This document shows positions 48,981-56,879 of a DNA stretch of 64,000 bases, piece by piece. This DNA comes from an uncultured Trueperaceae bacterium (GTDB lineage: Bacteria > Deinococcota > Deinococci > Deinococcales > Trueperaceae). The stretch covers positions 640,001-704,000 of the forward strand of contig CAVSGP010000009.1 of assembly GCA_963727505.1 (NCBI GenBank). Direction: 5' to 3'. The position numbers were made by a program, and so were the translations under genes. Each line of letters starts with the position of its first letter. Position 1 is the stretch's first letter. The notes below the pieces were generated by a model, which worked only from the letters and a program-made list of their open reading frames with translations, did no database searches and was not told where the DNA came from.

Positions 48981-50693
48981 ATGGGCGGGATCTTCACAGC
49001 GGTCGCAGGGTTGGCGCTGGCGTGGCTGGTCGGCTCGGTGCCGCTGGGCTCCACGCTGGTCCGGTGGCTCTCCGGTACGGAGCCAGCGGAGGTCAACCCC
49101 CATCTCATCGGAGTGGAGAACGTCTACCGCATGGTCGGGGCGCCTGCGGCTCTGGCGGCCTTCGCGCTCGACGTGCTCAAGGGCGCCGTGGCCGTGGTGC
49201 TGGTGCCTGTGGCGCCGCTCGGTGCGCTGGGCGTCTACCTGGGTCATCTCTACCCGTTGGGCCTACCCGGCCGGGCCAGGCCCCCGCGGGGCCGCGGCAA
49301 CGGGGTGCTGTTGGGTGCGCTGGCCGCGCTCTCGATCACAGGAGGGCTGCCCTGGCTGGCGTTGGCGCTTCCGATCTGGACGTACGCCGGCGTGCTCGCG
49401 GCCCGCCGTTACGTGGCCCTCGCGACCGTGAGCGGGCTGGCGGTGCTGGCGGCGGCGTCCGTGATGGCCTGGGTCGCTGGAGCGGCCGGGTCGCTGGCTG
49501 CCCTCGCGGCGGTACTCGTCGCGGCTTCGGGGGCCTGGCGCCAGAAGGCCGCCCTGGCACGGGTGCGCGACGGAACCGAGGCGCGCCTCGGCGATCCGCC
49601 CGCGGTGCGGGGACTCGAACCGGACACTCTGCTGTGCGCCTTCCTCGTGCACCCCATGACGGTGGACGACCTGTGGCAGCCCCCGAGCCAGCGCTGGCTG
49701 CGGCACCTGGCGGCCCGCGGCCTGCTGCCAGAAAGGGCGCTGCGCCGCATCATGCTCCGCATGCGCCCCCAGAGCCAGGGGGTGATCGAGGGCGTCCGCT
49801 TGCCCGACGGCCGGCGCATGCGCGTGCTCCTGATCGGCGGCCCCATGCTGCCCGACCAGTTCGCCGCCCACCCCGACATCGCGCTGAGGATGGCCATCCA
49901 GGGCGCCCGGCTGGCGCACGAGCTCGGCGCCGAAGCGGTCGGGCTGGGCGCATTCTGGTCGACCGTCGGCGACAAGGGTCAGGACGTGCAGCGCGCAGTC
50001 CCCGAGATCGCGGTCACCAACGGCGGCGCCTACACGGCGGCGAGCGTGCGGGCGGCGGTCCCCGGCCTGCTCGAGCGCTTCGCGGCCGAAGGGGGCTCGC
50101 TGCGGCGCGCCACGGCAGCCGTCGTCGGCGCCAACGGTGTCGTGGCGTTCGGGGTGGCGCGCATGATCGCGCCCGAGGTGCGCGAGCTGGTGCTGGTCGG
50201 CCGCGACGCCCAACGGCTGCGGCGCAGCGCCCAGACGCTGCGCCGCAAGCATCCGGACACGGAGGTGCTCGCCACCACCGATCTCGCCGCGGTGGCCGGG
50301 GCCGATCTGGTATTCACCGCGACCTCCGATCCCGCACCCGTGTTGCGCCCCGAGCACATCCGGCCCGGAGCATGGGTCTTCGACCTGGGGCGGCCGGCCG
50401 ATGTACACCCCAGCGTGCGGGAGGTTCCCGGCGTGCAGATCGTCCCGGGCGGCGTGGTGCGCCCGCCCGGCGCGATGCGGTCGCAGATCGACATCCGCTT
50501 CGGGGACGGGCTGGTCCCCGCCTGCCTGGCCGAAACGATGATCATGACGGCCGCGCACGCCTTCGACCGCCGCAGCCTGGGGTCGGTCACGCGCACGGCG
50601 GATATCGCCTTCTACCTGCGCGAAGGGGAGCGGCTGGGCTTCGAGATCGTCACGCGCGACGAGCGGGTGGCGGAGTTGGAGGCCGCGCTGTGA
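48981..50693 (+). CDS. PlsY-like acyltransferase fused to an acyl-ACP-reductase-like NAD(P)-binding domain
   Basis: N-terminal membrane domain GSVPLG, DVLKG, GHLYP, GRGNGV; C-terminal AFLVHP, GLGAFWSTVG, VTNGGAYT, VVGANGVVA, ACLAETMI. Confidence 0.7.
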   Translation: MGGIFTAVAGLALAWLVGSVPLGSTLVRWLSGTEPAEVNPHLIGVENVYRMVGAPAALAAFALDVLKGAVAVVLVPVAPLGALGVYLGHLYPLGLPGRARPPRGRGNGVLLGALAALSITGGLPWLALALPIWTYAGVLAARRYVALATVSGLAVLAAASVMAWVAGAAGSLAALAAVLVAASGAWRQKAALARVRDGTEARLGDPPAVRGLEPDTLLCAFLVHPMTVDDLWQPPSQRWLRHLAARGLLPERALRRIMLRMRPQSQGVIEGVRLPDGRRMRVLLIGGPMLPDQFAAHPDIALRMAIQGARLAHELGAEAVGLGAFWSTVGDKGQDVQRAVPEIAVTNGGAYTAASVRAAVPGLLERFAAEGGSLRRATAAVVGANGVVAFGVARMIAPEVRELVLVGRDAQRLRRSAQTLRRKHPDTEVLATTDLAAVAGADLVFTATSDPAPVLRPEHIRPGAWVFDLGRPADVHPSVREVPGVQIVPGGVVRPPGAMRSQIDIRFGDGLVPACLAETMIMTAAHAFDRRSLGSVTRTADIAFYLREGERLGFEIVTRDERVAELEAAL

Positions 50694-50703
50694 GGCGCGC
50701 CCG

Positions 50704-51519
50704 GTGAAGGCGTTCCGCATGACGGGGCGGCTTGAGCCCGAGAGCCCCGCCGTGGCCCGGCTCTTCGAATGCGGATCGCTGGGCGCGGTGGAGGAGACCG
50801 GCGGGAGCGGTGTCGAGATCGTGGCGTACTTCGACCGCCAGGTCGAGCTGGGCCTCGAGGGGCGCTGGGAGGACGTCGAGACGTTCGATTACGTCGCCGC
50901 CTACCGGGCCGATCTGAAGGCGGTGCGGGTGGGCTCGCTGGTGGTCGCGCCCACCCACCGGCGCGCCGAGCTGGAGGCCGGCCAGCAGGTGGTATGGCTT
51001 GACCCCGGCACCGCCTTCGGGACCGGCCACCACGAGACGACGCGCCTGGCGCTGGGGACGCTGGTCAGTATCGACCTGGTCGGACGGAGCGTGCTCGACG
51101 TGGGCGCCGGGTCCGGCATCCTCACGGTGGCGGCCGACCGGCTCGGCGCGGGCCTGGCCCTCGGCGTCGATATCGATGCCGCCACCGTCGAGGTCGCGCG
51201 CCGCAACGCCGTGCTCAACCGCTCGCGGGCACGGTTCCTGACGGGTAGCGTCGACCATCCGGATCTTCCTGCGCGCTTCGACGTCATCGTCGCAAACCTC
51301 TACGCCGAGCTCCATGCCGCGCTGATGCCCGCCTACCTGGCCCGCCTGAACGCCGGCGGCGCGCTGCTGTTGACCGGCATCCTCACGCGGCTCGAGCCGA
51401 CCGTACGTCGTGCGCTCCCCGAGGGACTGCCGTTCCGGGTGGAGCGGGAGGGTGAGTGGTCGCTGTTCGCGGTGCGCATGGGGAGCCTCGAGGCGGGGCG
51501 ATCGAGGTGGACGCCATGA
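50704..51519 (+). CDS. prmA: Ribosomal protein L11 methyltransferase
   Basis: LDPGTAFGTGHHETT, VLDVGAGSGIL, VANLYAE. Confidence 0.92.
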   Translation: MKAFRMTGRLEPESPAVARLFECGSLGAVEETGGSGVEIVAYFDRQVELGLEGRWEDVETFDYVAAYRADLKAVRVGSLVVAPTHRRAELEAGQQVVWLDPGTAFGTGHHETTRLALGTLVSIDLVGRSVLDVGAGSGILTVAADRLGAGLALGVDIDAATVEVARRNAVLNRSRARFLTGSVDHPDLPARFDVIVANLYAELHAALMPAYLARLNAGGALLLTGILTRLEPTVRRALPEGLPFRVEREGEWSLFAVRMGSLEAGRSRWTP

Positions 51520-51529
51520 GGTGGACGCC

Positions 51530-51976
51530 GTGAGCAGGGCAAGGACGCCACGGGGTTCTGCGTGGCGCCCGCGGCCGTGGGTACCGCTGTTGGCACCGCT
51601 CCTGGCGCTTCTCCTGGGGCTGGGCGCGTGCACGCCGCTCTACGTGCCGCCGGTTCCGGAACGCGTCCCCGTGCACGAGGTCGCACAGCTCGGTGACGCA
51701 AGCGCGTTGCGCCTCCGGGACGGCGTCCTGACCCTGCACGTGGTGCTCGATCGCATCCCCGACGCGGGTTGGCTGGCGGTGCAGTGGTTCGCGCCGGACG
51801 GCACCGAAGTTGCCTCGGACAGCGTCTGGGTCGCCCCGGCGAACGTGGGAGAGGGCCGCACTCTGGTGTTGCCGCCGCGCGTGAGCCCGAGCGCGGGCGA
51901 GTGGCGGGCGGTCGTCTCGCTCCGGGGCGAAGTGCTGCGGCAGTTCCGCGCGACCGTCACGGCGAACGCGTTGTAG
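51530..51976 (+). CDS. Hypothetical lipoprotein
   Basis: Basic N-region, hydrophobic stretch, lipobox LGAC; beta-rich mature domain. Confidence 0.6.
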   Translation: MSRARTPRGSAWRPRPWVPLLAPLLALLLGLGACTPLYVPPVPERVPVHEVAQLGDASALRLRDGVLTLHVVLDRIPDAGWLAVQWFAPDGTEVASDSVWVAPANVGEGRTLVLPPRVSPSAGEWRAVVSLRGEVLRQFRATVTANAL

Positions 51977-52272: not shown

Positions 52273-54465
52273 TCAGGCCGTGCGCCTCCGTGTGCGGCGG
52301 GCGCGCTTCTGCTGCTGCATCTTGAACCACACCACCATGGGCGACAGGATGAAGATGCTCGAGTAGGTGCCGAAGCCGATGCCGATGAGCAACGCGATGC
52401 TGAAGCCCCGGAGCACGCTGCCGCCGAACAGCAGCAGCGCGAGGACGGGCAGCAGCGTGGTGCCCGAGGTCGCCACGGTCCGCGACAGCGTCTGGTTCAC
52501 GGCCAGGTCGACGACCTCGGCGTAGCTGCGGTCGCGCACCTTGCGGAGGTTCTCGCGGATGCGGTCGGCGATGATGATGGAGTCGTTGAGAGAATAGCCG
52601 ACGACGAAGAGCACCGCGGCCAGCACCGGGATGCTGAAGGTCACGTTGAACAGGTCGAGCGCGCCCAGCACGATGCCGGCGTCGTGGATGGTGGCGATGA
52701 TGGCGGCCACCGCCACGATCCAGTTGGGCCAGAAGCGCCACGCCACATAGAGCAGGATCAGGCCAAGGGCGACGAGCACCGCCATGATGGCCGCCTGCCG
52801 CAGGTCCGCCCCGACGGCGGGGCCGACGTAATTGGCCTGCAGCAGCTGGCCGTTCAGCTTGGCGGTGAGATCGTTCGCGAACTGGTCGGCGCTCTGCTGA
52901 CCGGTCTCGTTCAGGCCGACGCGGATCGACATGGGGTTGCCCTGCAGGGTGTTGTCGATCACCTTGACGACGGTGGCGTTCTTGCCGGTGATGCCGGGAT
53001 AGTTCAGGTCGGTGATGGCCGAGCGCACGTCGGCAACGGTGGTCCCGTCGGGAACGTCGACGAGGACGTTGGTGCCGCCGGTGAAGTCGGTGGAGAGCTT
53101 CAGGCCTTCGATGGAGACGATGGCGATGGAGGCGATCGCGAGCAGCCCGGAGACGCTCATGATGACCGGCGCCTTGCTGACGAAGCGCACGCCCTCGACG
53201 AAGAAGCCCTTCCAGAGGTAGGTGCGCTTGCTCTTGCGGGCGGTGATGAGGTCGAGGATGAACGGCACCACCACGACGTTCACGAACACCGAGGCGATGA
53301 TGCCGATGGCCAGGGTGATGGCGAAACCGCGTACCGGCCCGGTCGTGTACTGGTAGAGCGCGGCGGCGGCCAGCAGCGTGGTGACGTTGGCGTCGATGAT
53401 GGCCGACAGCGAGTTGCCGAAGCCGGTCTTCATCGCCAGGCGGATCGACTTGCCCGCCCGCAGCTCCTCACGGATGCGCTCGAAGCTGATGACGTTGCCG
53501 TCGACCGCGGCGCCGATGGTGAGCACCAGGCCGGCCAGGCCCGGAAGCGTGAGCGCCGCATGGAGGGCGGCCAGGGTGCCGAAGATGAACAGCATGGCGA
53601 GCCCGAGGCCGAAGGTGAGGACGCCTCCGAAGACCAGGCCGTAATAGCCGATGACCGCCGCCACGACCGCAGCGCCGCCGATGAACGCGGCGATCTTGCC
53701 GGCGTTGATGCTGTCCTGACCGAGCGTCGGGCCGATGGAGCGGATCTCCTCGACGTGGAGGCTGATCGGGAGGCTCCCCGAGCGCAACACCAGCGAGATG
53801 TTGCTGGCTTCCTCCAGCGAGTTGATGCCGGTGATCTGCCCCGAGTCGGAGATGCGCGACTGTAGCGTGGGGGCCGTGATGATCTTTCCGTCCAGCACGA
53901 TCGCCATGCGCCGCCCGACGTTACCGCCGGTGAAGTCGCCGAACTTGCCGGCGTCCTTGGCCTTGATGTTGAAGAACACGGCGGGCCCCATGGTCGAGCC
54001 GCCCACGCGTTGGAAGTCGGCGCGGGCGGTGCTGATGATCTCGCCCGTGAACGCGGGCTTCTCGAGGTCGTCGAGCGTCATCTGGGCGGTGGTCTTGTTC
54101 TGCGCCGACGGTTTGACGAGCTGGAAGTAGAGCTTGGCCTGCTGGCCGATGAGTGAGAGGGCGCGCTTCTGGTCCGCCGCCGTCAGGCCGGGCAGCTCCA
54201 CCACGATGCGGTTCTTGCCCGAGGTGGTGATGAGCGGCTCCGAGACGCCGAACTGGTTGACGCGGTTCTCGATGACGTTGCGGGCGGTCGCCAGGTCTTG
54301 CGTGGAGGGGTTGGCGGTGTTCGACTGCAGCACCACGCGCAGGCCGCCCTGCAGGTCGAGGCCGAGCTTGAGCGGGGCCGTCGCGCTCCAAGGTTGCCAC
54401 AGGTACAAGATCGACGCGATGATCGCTGCCAGCACGACGGCGCCGGTGAAGGTCCTTCGGTTCAC
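52273..54465 (-). CDS. secDF: Fused protein translocase subunit SecDF
   Basis: LGLDLQGG, NQFGVSEP, LRSGSLP, IGAAVDGNV..FERIREE, DFTGG, GYSLNDSII..DRIREN. Confidence 0.96.
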   Translation of the reverse strand: MNRRTFTGAVVLAAIIASILYLWQPWSATAPLKLGLDLQGGLRVVLQSNTANPSTQDLATARNVIENRVNQFGVSEPLITTSGKNRIVVELPGLTAADQKRALSLIGQQAKLYFQLVKPSAQNKTTAQMTLDDLEKPAFTGEIISTARADFQRVGGSTMGPAVFFNIKAKDAGKFGDFTGGNVGRRMAIVLDGKIITAPTLQSRISDSGQITGINSLEEASNISLVLRSGSLPISLHVEEIRSIGPTLGQDSINAGKIAAFIGGAAVVAAVIGYYGLVFGGVLTFGLGLAMLFIFGTLAALHAALTLPGLAGLVLTIGAAVDGNVISFERIREELRAGKSIRLAMKTGFGNSLSAIIDANVTTLLAAAALYQYTTGPVRGFAITLAIGIIASVFVNVVVVPFILDLITARKSKRTYLWKGFFVEGVRFVSKAPVIMSVSGLLAIASIAIVSIEGLKLSTDFTGGTNVLVDVPDGTTVADVRSAITDLNYPGITGKNATVVKVIDNTLQGNPMSIRVGLNETGQQSADQFANDLTAKLNGQLLQANYVGPAVGADLRQAAIMAVLVALGLILLYVAWRFWPNWIVAVAAIIATIHDAGIVLGALDLFNVTFSIPVLAAVLFVVGYSLNDSIIIADRIRENLRKVRDRSYAEVVDLAVNQTLSRTVATSGTTLLPVLALLLFGGSVLRGFSIALLIGIGFGTYSSIFILSPMVVWFKMQQQKRARRTRRRTA

Positions 54466-54559
54466 GGGGGACTCCTAAGACGGGGTTTCGGGGGCTCGAA
54501 GGGGAGGGGCGCGGCGACGCATCGCTGCCGCGGCCCGCGGGGCACGGGGGATCCGGCCC

Positions 54560-54913
54560 TCATCCGCCTTCCAGCTGGAGCCGTCCGTACGCCGTCAACA
54601 GCGCCGTAGGGGCCGGTCCGGCGGTGTCACGACGCGCCGCGCGCAACGCCGCGTTCGGATCGGGGACCGGAAGCGCAGCGCGACCCGGCAGGACCGGCAG
54701 GCGCAGCGTTCCCGTGGCGCCACCGGGGGCGGTGAGACGGGCACCCGTCTCCAGCATGAGCGGGGCGCGGCTCCCCATCCCGGCACCGGCAGTCGACGGA
54801 TCGTGTGCGGCCGCCGCCAGACGCTGGAGGGGGATGGCCGCCAGCGTCACGGCGAGCGCCAGGCTCAATACGAGCCCGCGTCGGCGCCGGAGGGTCGTCA
54901 GGGCGGCCTGCAC
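54560..54913 (-). CDS. Signal-peptide-containing uORF of secDF (candidate translation-arrest/monitoring peptide)
   Basis: TAGAAT 7 nt before GTG; RRRR plus hydrophobic stretch plus AAA; Pro/Ala linker; ends YGRLQLEGG*. Confidence 0.6.
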   Translation of the reverse strand: MQAALTTLRRRRGLVLSLALAVTLAAIPLQRLAAAAHDPSTAGAGMGSRAPLMLETGARLTAPGGATGTLRLPVLPGRAALPVPDPNAALRAARRDTAGPAPTALLTAYGRLQLEGG

Positions 54914-55058
54914 GCCCGCTATTCTAGCGCGCGTCGCTGGGCGAGGTACCGGGCCCGCCGTGCGAGGCCAGGCCCCACGAGCGTCGCCCCGGGCGCATGC
55001 GGTTGCGCCCGGGGCGACGGCACCGGAAGGGTGGGTGGAGGCGGGTGGGGAGCCGAGC

Positions 55059-56879
55059 TCAGGCCGGCGTCACCTCGACCATCTCGTAGGCCACGATGAC
55101 GTCCCCCTCCTGGACGTTGTCGTAGTTCTGCAGGTTGATGCCGCACTCGAAGCCGGAGGCCACCTCGCGCACGTCGTCCTTGAAGCGCCGCAGCTGCGCG
55201 ACGGAGCCCTTGTAGACCTCCTTGCCACCACGCGTCAGGCGGGCCTTGGAGCCACGCCGGATCAGGCCGTCGGTGACGTAGGAGCCTGCGATGTTGCCGC
55301 TTCGGGGCACCCGGATGACGGCGCGCACCTCGGCGTGACCGATGACCCGCTCCTCGAATTCCGGCTCGATCTGGCCGCGGATCATGCGCTGCACGTCCTC
55401 GATGAGCTCGTAGATGATCTTGTAGCTCTTGATCGCGACCTTCTGCCGCTCGGCCGACTTCTTCACGCTACCGGGCGGATTCACGCCGAAGGTGATGACC
55501 GTGGCGTCGGCCGTGCTGGCCAGCAGCAGGTCGGACTCGGTGGGCGCGCCCACTTCGGCCAGCATGATCTCGAGCTCGACCTCGTCGGTGGCTTCCGCCT
55601 CCCGCGCGAGAACGCCCTTGATCGCCTCCAACGAACCCTGTGCATCCGCCCGCAGGACCAGGTTGATGACCTTCTTGGTGGGTTTGCCGAACAGGTCGGC
55701 GAGGGTCAGACCCTTGCGGCCGATGGACTCCAGCTCGGTTTCCTTGCGCTGGTCGCGCCGCTGGCCCGCGAGCTGCTTTGCCGTCTGTTCGTCCGCCGCC
55801 GCCTCCACCAGGTCCCCGGCGTTCGGCTGCTCGGAGAAGCCGAGGATCTGAACAGGGGCCGACGGCCCGGCCGCATCGACGATCGTGCCGGTGTGATCGG
55901 TGAGACGGCGGACCTTGGCCCACGCCTCGCCCGACACGATGTAGTCGGCGACGCGTAGGGTGCCTTCCTGCACCAGCACGGTCGCCAGCACACCTGCGCG
56001 CTTGTCGAGCACCGACTCGATCACGATCCCCTTGGCGGGCCCGTCCGAGGTCGCACGCAGCTCCTCGACTTCGGCAACCAGCGAGATCATCTCCAGCAGA
56101 TCGTCGACGCCGTCGCCCGTCTTGGCGCTGATCTCGACCACGATGGTGTCCCCTCCGAAGTCTTCGGGGACGAGCTCGACCTGCATCAGGTCCCGCTTGA
56201 CCTTCTCCGGGTCGGACTGGGGCAGGTCGCACTTGTTGATCGCCACGATGATCGGCACCTTGGCGGCCTTGGCGTGGGCGATGGCCTCGCGCGACTGCGG
56301 CATGATGCTGTCGTCGGCAGCAACCACGATCACGGCGATGTCGGTGGCGTTGGTACCGCGCTGTCGAATGGACGTGAAGGCTTCGTGCCCCGGTGTGTCC
56401 AGGAAGGTCACCAGCCCGCCCTTGGTCTCGGCCTGATAGGCGCCGATGTGCTGGGTGATGCCCCCGGCTTCACCTTCGGCCACTTTGGTGTGCCGGATGT
56501 AGTCGAGCAGAGTGGTCTTGCCGTGGTCGACATGACCCATCACCGTCACGACCGGCGCCCGCAGAGGAGCGTCGGCGGTCGCAGCCTTGGCCTCGTCGGC
56601 CTTCGGCTTGGGTTTGGGCTTCGTCGCCGTGGCCGTGGCGCCGCCGGACGCGGGCTCTGCGGCCTTCGCCGGAGCCGCGGGCCGGTCGGCGGTCACGGGG
56701 GCGGGCTCGTCACCGTGGTCGCTCTCGACCAGTTGCCGCACCGTGTCCGCTACGTCGTGCTCGAGAGTGCTCGAGTGCGACTTGTATTCCACGCCCATCT
56801 CGTCGAGGATCGCCAGCATCTCCTTGGTCTCGATGCCGAGGTCCTTCGCCAGCTGATAGATCCGTACCTTATCGGACAT
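55059..56879 (-). CDS. infB: Translation initiation factor IF-2 (short form)
   Basis: [42 protein letters not shown]. Confidence 0.97.

Follow-up and report, generated by a model that had tools for sequence, protein, structure and literature searches.

The DNA between infB and secDF in the genome of an uncultured Trueperaceae bacterium raises the question of whether a short open reading frame (ORF) at this site encodes a peptide that monitors protein secretion, as a first-pass annotation had proposed. We addressed this question in a window of 64,000 nucleotides, the whole stretch of DNA that was analyzed, and at the corresponding loci of related genomes. The ORF lies on the minus strand (54560..54913), starts with a GTG at 54913, encodes a candidate SecDF-monitoring arrest peptide of 117 aa followed by a TGA stop codon (54562-54560), and ends in PTALLTAYGRLQLEGG-stop. 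A gap of 94 nt separates it from secDF (52273..54465, minus strand), the putative regulated gene, which starts with a GTG at 54465, encodes a fused SecD/SecF protein of 730 aa assigned to SecDF by Pfam, and is present in one full-length copy in the window's genome. Upstream, infB (55059..56879, minus strand) is the last gene of a rimP-nusA-ylxR-infB run, in which nusA was called from its sequence and the matching gene order in D. deserti. The positions initially reported for the ORF, its promoter box, the gap, the secDF Shine-Dalgarno (SD) sequence and the tail all agree with the sequence.

Transcription start and distribution of the upstream ORF

The ORF is preceded by a -10 box, TAGAAT (54921..54926, minus strand), with a 7-nt spacer to the GTG, forming a probable leaderless promoter. 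A TAnnnT box 7 nt before the GTG is found at 10/10 loci of the window's genus, and since the box-overlapping ATG of relatives reads ATA in the window, GTG is the likely start. Within 54400-55100, a consensus promoter scanner found no promoter site, because a -35 box is absent, and no intrinsic terminator; the leaderless reading therefore rests on the conserved TAnnnT spacing and on data from D. deserti. The supplement of PMC4007540 lists the D. deserti gene Deide_10362 with 114 aa, a TTG start and a distance of 55 nt to secDF, and we equate it by position and length with ACO45925.1 (114 aa, ending in QQTDGG), an ortholog of the family by position. The dRNA-seq data of that source place its transcription start site (TSS) at -3, with a TATCCT box, making it leaderless, and its reads largely survive TEX (247 to 190); in the same data secDF has no primary TSS of its own, and in the consulted portion of this D. 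deserti proteome study Deide_10362 is absent from the detected proteins (PMC4007540). Thus, the leaderless start suggested earlier is probable. Across the family, leaderless-like starts were observed at 38/97 loci and starts overlapping the infB stop codon at 23/97. An RNA run (X1, 7% of words) covered only conserved infB and secDF parts of other organisms and is uninformative on expression.

secDF was located in 60/61 sampled relatives and in 117/128 genomes of the window's family, and the upstream DNA was examined at 130 Deinococcales loci, 107 of these 117 and 23 from four other families. Within a search span of 700 nt upstream of secDF, an ORF ending in [ED]GG-stop was present at 97/130 loci and in all five Deinococcales families (80/107 in the window's family and 4/5, 6/6, 6/6 and 1/6 in the others), compared to a chance rate of about 1% (2/130 on the reverse strand, 0.9% in shuffles). 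As related genomes are not independent, these locus counts serve as descriptions and not as tests. The 33 loci without [ED]GG-stop, sorted by eye, comprised 13 at which infB overlaps secDF and the ORF is absent, 9 with shortened or altered tails (including RLQL, QWRL, RWNE, QLEG and QIEGA before the stop), 5 with gaps of 63-175 nt, 4 without an ORF (three of them inspected and the fourth scored by the absent pattern alone), 1 at a contig edge and 1 uncertain case. In the Thermaceae, the motif was found at 27/30 further loci, 2 of which repeat earlier genomes; at the remaining three the last Gly is Cys, and two of the three read through. One narrow pattern matched 63/125 Deinococcaceae genomes, with 2 of the matches ending in TGG and not in a stop codon and 2 matches in the reversed control, and a motif ORF preceded secDF at 10/10 Deinococcus loci retrieved. 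Named records with the motif before secDF include Trueperaceae and Thermus. The T. thermophilus HB8 ortholog is Q5SKE5/BAD70521.1, and at one locus (L210) infB and secDF flank a gene of the Q5SKE5 cluster, the SecDF there differing from PDB 3AQP at two of its first 141 positions. Collecting the loci of relatives hence recovered across the order the pattern that the first-pass annotation had named as support for its proposal, an upstream ORF that is conserved and combines a signal-like N-terminus with a variable middle and a fixed C-terminal motif. The 117-codon ORF is confirmed as a real gene of an order-wide family.

The ORF stays next to secDF even in lineages where infB is not adjacent. In 15 genomes without the ORF before secDF, a family profile found no convincing copy elsewhere (best partial matches at E 0.02-0.04, or none); the same profile recovered 9/9 genomes with canonical copies (7 in the model, 2 not) and 2/6 variant loci, missing truncated variants in 4 genomes. 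Furthermore, when 185,579 genomes were scanned with a pattern that also admitted TGG (Trp) in place of the stop, 13/29 stop-ended matches lay before secDF compared to 0/20 Trp-ended matches, and the 36 matches located elsewhere look like chance; relatives outside Deinococcota with other tails are possible. In the window's genome the motif with its stop occurs once, and 21 matches to a looser pattern continue into sense codons.

Separately, three loci of one Thermaceae genus (L194, L195 and L201) carry Cys at the last Gly position, and at L195 the ORF continues for 27 codons across the secDF SD to a stop codon 3 nt before the secDF start. These Cys variants represent either decay or an elongation-type variant.

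Protein anatomy and the conserved C-terminus

Conservation, scored over genus-weighted columns, climbs steeply over the last 13 residues, which follow the proline-free consensus Lxx[LYF]GRLQL[ED]GG, with Leu at -12, Leu/Tyr/Phe at -9, Gly at -8, Arg at -7, Leu at -6, Gln at -5, Leu at -4, Glu/Asp at -3, and Gly, Gly. In the window, this motif and the stop codon occupy 54560..54598 (minus strand; residues 106-117) and constitute the candidate arrest sequence, characterized by column statistics and synonymous variation. Pro occurs within the last 13 residues of 3/97 orthologs and just upstream in 83/97, and the lack of a RAPP or RAGP motif, originally reported for the window ORF, holds across the 97 orthologs. 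All four Gly codons are used in the tail, all three stop codons occur (TGA 67, TAG 15, TAA 15), the motif is retained in AT-rich genomes, and the bases 3' of the stop are not conserved. Thus, selection on the tail acts on the protein. As the last three residues were our own search criterion, an independent profile check was needed: in a profile search of 1.84 billion proteins, 104/104 hits end exactly in [ED]GG. When 145 Thermaceae and Deinococcus profile hits were inspected (not counting 5 already in hand under other ids), 129 ended in [ED]GG and the other 16 in DGA (8), LEG (4), DGP (1), DGR (1), GGG (1) or as a fragment (1); 15 of the 145 have another residue or none in place of the last Gly, with the motif otherwise intact. 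These end variants indicate that the last Gly is less firmly fixed than the acidic residue and the first Gly.

A tail of this kind resembles ubiquitin-type C-termini, and its Gly-Gly could be a ubiquitin-like handle that is activated, conjugated or recognized after release, and not a stalling motif. The uniform GG end of the 104 profile hits would suit such a handle, as would the presence in Thermus of the ubiquitin-like protein TtuB, recorded in the portion of the literature consulted. However, ubiquitin-like sulfur carriers combine a beta-grasp fold with an invariant Gly-Gly, whereas no beta-grasp fold was predicted for the family, its model contains no strands, and its last Gly varies in the hits described above. 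Moreover, an export signal would part the tail from cytoplasmic activating enzymes, and the tie to secDF would be left unexplained, making this reading extremely improbable.

At its N-terminus, the window protein carries a signal-like segment (residues 1-35; 54809..54913, minus strand) with a basic n-region RRRR, a hydrophobic stretch, the conserved Pro28 and an Ala-rich possible cleavage site, the signal being judged by hydropathy and the cleavage putative. A hydrophobic 11-residue window with a score >=2.0 was found in 93/97 orthologs compared to 17/194 control frames, the n-region is net positive in 85/95 members, and Pro28, located after the hydrophobic segment, is present in 56/61. A Tat signal was considered and dropped, twin arginines being absent, by eye, from many orthologs. 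Members are 92-154 aa in length and lie 55-626 nt from secDF. The spacer from the hydrophobic segment to the C-terminus has a median of 88 residues (quartiles 87-93, range 79-123, all 97 orthologs) and holds a second conserved element 55-70 residues from the C-terminus. In the window this element spans residues 45-59 (54737..54781, minus strand) and includes Gly45, Met/Leu46, Leu54, Glu/Asp55 and Arg59; Gly45 is found in 53/61 members and Glu/Asp55 in 45/61, and in 61/61 the distance of position 46 to the C-terminus is 64-75 residues. AlphaFold predicted helices at residues 2-36, 86-95 and 102-114, with a loose middle, no packed domain and no strands (pTM 0.30). No Pfam or NCBIfam match was found among 61 members, searching the PDB sequences with the family profile yielded signal-peptide-level matches alone (E 0.27 or worse), and database records name family members as hypothetical only. 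In six orthologs the tail is directly preceded by a second hydrophobic stretch; this could anchor the peptide in the membrane or alter the way in which force acts on it.

In E. coli, the yajC gene, of similar size, lies before secD, and the ORF could by analogy encode a small membrane or exported accessory of the SecDF-translocon, YajC-like in position with an unrelated sequence, that acts in trans through binding of its C-terminal helix to SecDF or SecYEG. Besides gene size and position, the absence of a YajC match from the window's 97%-complete genome and the second conserved element in the spacer would be in keeping with such an accessory. However, YajC is defined by PF02699 and a folded soluble domain, and the family has neither; conservation is anchored to the stop codon, and displaced copies were not found in the 15 genomes without the ORF by a profile of limited sensitivity. 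Furthermore, T. thermophilus has this gene together with a YajC-like match, the score of which relative to the cut-off is not given. We consider a role as an accessory unlikely. The D. radiodurans control genome was likewise without a YajC match.

A candidate secretion monitor and its relation to known arrest peptides

The monitoring peptide proposed in the first-pass annotation is partly supported. In our interpretation, the ORF is likely a cis-acting secretion monitor of the SecM/VemP type with its own, new arrest motif; stalling, force-sensing and regulation of secDF are all three things that we infer from sequence. In terms of the features used in a published screen for such peptides (PMC10987492), the family consists of small ORFs without an assigned function located immediately 5' of a sec gene, with an N-terminal signal or transmembrane segment by hydropathy, a C-terminus conserved among homologs, and a spacer from signal to conserved end of more than 30 residues (79-123). 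Published spacers, in the portion of this source consulted, are 71 and 131.5 for SecM and 133 for VemP, and the family spacer falls within this range, the distances having been measured differently.

VemP of Vibrio and SecM of E. coli share with the family a signal peptide, a spacer, a C-terminal motif and a downstream sec gene, theirs being under feedback. However, neither matches the family in sequence, both act by unmasking an SD that is sequestered, of which folding of the family loci gave no sign, and VemP controls a secDF2 paralog whereas the window's genome has one secDF. A small-SecM cluster was a weak neighbour of the Thermus protein in a language-model search (score 0.88, below the lead threshold). 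ApdA, ApdP and RQH are likewise encoded upstream of secDF and have a layout in common with the family, but they depend on RAPP-like motifs, which the family lacks at its putative arrest site. The uDF_DGMK-stop, uDF_NAP-stop and uA_NSP-stop peptides resemble the family in gene position, ahead of secDF or secA, and in having a signal, a spacer and conserved residues right before the stop, and they stall with the stop codon in the A site; however, they come from Firmicutes and Bacteroidota and their motifs differ, according to the consulted part of PMC10987492. Compared by motif and not by profile, the family tail is [ED]GG-stop and neither DGMK-stop nor DGEK-E, and DGMK shares with it Asp-Gly alone, offset by one residue relative to the stop.

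LudP, as described in the consulted part of its preprint (bioRxiv 10.64898/2026.10.26.761930), is encoded upstream of secDF and has a proline-free, helical arrest element of ~15 residues with an acidic residue before Gly; its release is signal-dependent and it can arrest at termination. Unlike the family, it is confined to Lacrimispora, carries the motif DGEK-E and arrests elongation. CliM (uC_KYxIW) can arrest at termination by blocking the GGQ loop of the release factor, but the protein that it monitors is YidC, and its penultimate residue, Gly in the family, must be bulky; in CliM, changing the penultimate Leu to Gly abolishes stalling (PMC13183943, in the part consulted). A Gly-Gly end would require a block of the catalytic centre unlike those of CliM, LudP and the RAPP peptides. 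Judged by these comparisons, the family falls outside each named family tested. Atlas neighbours in Acidobacteriota and Binatota (0.93) carry no family assignment or context.

The concept of a Sec-monitoring arrest peptide is established; the family itself is new and apparently undescribed. About 20 Sec/YidC-linked arrest peptides are known, none found from Deinococcota, and the present family spans a whole order. The analysis scripts of Fujiwara 2024 contain six secDF classes (VemP, ApdA, ApdP, RQH, NAP-stop and DGMK-stop); its main text, as consulted, mentions no Deinococcota and no LEGG, and its secA table and part of its yidC table hold no Deinococcota rows, the secDF table and supplementary figures lying outside this comparison (PMC10987492). 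Neither Deinococcus nor Thermus is mentioned in the consulted portions of Sakiyama 2021 (PMC7897499), the LudP preprint (bioRxiv 10.64898/2026.10.26.761930) or the CliM paper (PMC13183943), and a search of the freely accessible literature by ortholog identifiers and topic found no description of the family. Going by the available parts of these sources, the family seems to have been overlooked by screens of 449 and of 30,000 genomes, the latter with Truepera and Deinococcus genomes.

If the ORF is a secretion monitor, its tail would be helical inside the ribosome exit tunnel and block the peptidyl-transferase centre on reaching the last one or two codons. The chance that arrest occurs at peptide release on the stop codon appears slightly better than even, and that it occurs at the last peptide bond, with the penultimate Gly in the P site, slightly below even; termination arrest is plausible without being certain, given that some members have Ala, Pro, Arg, Cys or no residue in place of the last Gly and that the ORF reads through at two loci. 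The signal would engage SecYEG, and pulling by SecA/SecDF would release the stall. Under weak export, the ribosome would remain on the Glu-Gly-Gly-stop codons, which would otherwise be paired with a C-rich tract preceding the ribosome-binding site of secDF. This would make initiation on secDF easier and raise SecDF, which is the weakest step of the proposal. Against a monitor stand the 9 loci with truncated tails and the 2 with altered tails and read-through, and the fact that Gly-Gly has no side chain to block a release factor. If the monitor is real, T. thermophilus, a standard model in structural work on the ribosome and SecDF, would gain a native one: with Q5SKE5 before the SecDF that matches 3AQP, native ribosome, translocon and monitor would be found in one organism.

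mRNA folding and a possible downstream effect on secDF

The SD of secDF, AGGAG (54472..54476, minus strand), is conserved in the genus alignment, and 5' of it lies a C-rich, G-poor tract (54481..54511, minus strand) whose 5' part is predicted to pair with the Glu-Gly-Gly-stop codons when these are ribosome-free. In the predicted ribosome-free ensemble, the stop region pairs with the CU-rich stretch 54511-54498 with a mean pairing probability of 0.54. The C/G skew of the tract, 0.5, is reached by 0.9% of 434 control genes of the same genome, and the 146-nt region folds modestly better than shuffles (z -1.94). Across loci, the stop region paired with the sequence 3' of it only slightly more than after shuffling (0.53 compared to 0.46; higher in 92/132). 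A GC-rich intergenic hairpin (54507..54536, minus strand) is predicted in both the ribosome-free and the ribosome-occupied folds; it was not recovered as a covarying conserved stem in the genus alignment. The consensus fold of 11 close relatives was weak (-4.7 kcal), with one pair showing two-sided change and no covarying stem, and Rfam gave no match at E up to 1 in 54300-55200.

The window CU tract showed no predicted pairing with the SD, ribosome-free or ribosome-occupied, and a folding test from SD to start codon with a footprint at the stop was null (19 lower and 15 higher of 86 loci, with 11/97 skipped for a long gap or lack of an SD, and one start, at L087, mis-assigned). A wider target, secDF -35..+5, was picked after this null test and sight of the C-rich tract. 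With a footprint at the stop, its opening cost fell by >1 kcal in 52/112 loci and rose in 6, with 20/132 loci skipped; control footprints gave 40 lower vs 20 higher at 30 nt upstream and 18 vs 30 at 60 nt upstream. For 52 GC-rich family loci the mean drop was 2.0 kcal, compared to 0.2 kcal for 110 of 174 ordinary gene pairs of the window genome, whose starts were crudely called and which were more structured (23 vs 14 kcal). The difference had a P of 0.0004, or 0.002 on 12 genus means, values that are inflated by kinship. The unmasking was small in the Thermaceae (median 0.24) and the window's genus (0.16) and gone at gaps >110 nt; as gaps reach 626 nt, simple occlusion is unlikely at the longest of them. 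Together, these models lend modest support, in the expected direction, to a stalled ribosome unmasking the wider secDF initiation region. The folds give weak support to the mRNA switch implied in the first-pass annotation: they show the pairing between the stop region and the CU-rich element and a modest unmasking of the wider region, but no switch at the SD itself. Tentatively, and with clearly less than even confidence, the family may represent an arrest peptide that is ancestral in Deinococcales and not patchy, stalls through a proline-free acidic-Gly-Gly end without a bulky residue at the catalytic centre, hence by a chemistry not seen before, and controls the single secDF of the cell, via an unmasked C-rich loading region upstream and not the SD.

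A peptide that stalls could also have an output or an input different from those of the proposed monitor. In TnaC, a ribosome at the stop codon controls the access of Rho, and a peptide that senses export could similarly act on transcription, with the ribosome at the stop controlling Rho access to the C-rich tract. A Rho gene is present, the tract is unusually C-rich in the window's genus and family, and the long gaps fit Rho better than SD occlusion. Furthermore, in the D. deserti data consulted the ORF has 247 reads in 345 nt and secDF 739 in 2307 nt, a ~2x difference per base; however, these counts favour 5' ends (PMC4007540). C-richness is also weak in the Thermaceae (0.05) and in family f3 (0.16), the tract is retained at 3/6 loci that lost the ORF, and a stall that frees the tract would aid Rho, the wrong sign for feedback, so that an output through Rho is distinctly improbable. 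Alternatively, the stalled peptide could serve to bring the secDF mRNA to the translocon, or what it senses could be a metabolite or stress in place of pulling force. The unusually constant spacer with its second element and the weakness of the RNA switch are compatible with such a function, but a signal, spacer and tail before a sec gene is the layout of force-released monitors, and some directional unmasking was seen; we regard a carrier or other sensor as very improbable.

In lineages lacking the leader gene, which was lost in at least four genera (13 loci), infB overlaps the secDF start by 4-7 nt, an arrangement that suggests a switch to translational coupling with infB. Ten Thermaceae genomes carry, ~1 kb upstream of secDF and in the same orientation, a separate ORF of ~250 codons similar to the SecD periplasmic region, and stand-alone SecD periplasmic-like matches are similarly present in family f1. 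In the window itself, an ORF without a Pfam match (51410-51976, plus strand), lipoprotein-like with a hydrophobic stretch followed by Cys, converges on secDF, and at 48981-50693 (plus strand) a 570-aa fusion joins a PlsY-like glycerol-3-phosphate acyltransferase domain to a shikimate-dehydrogenase-like NAD(P)-binding domain.
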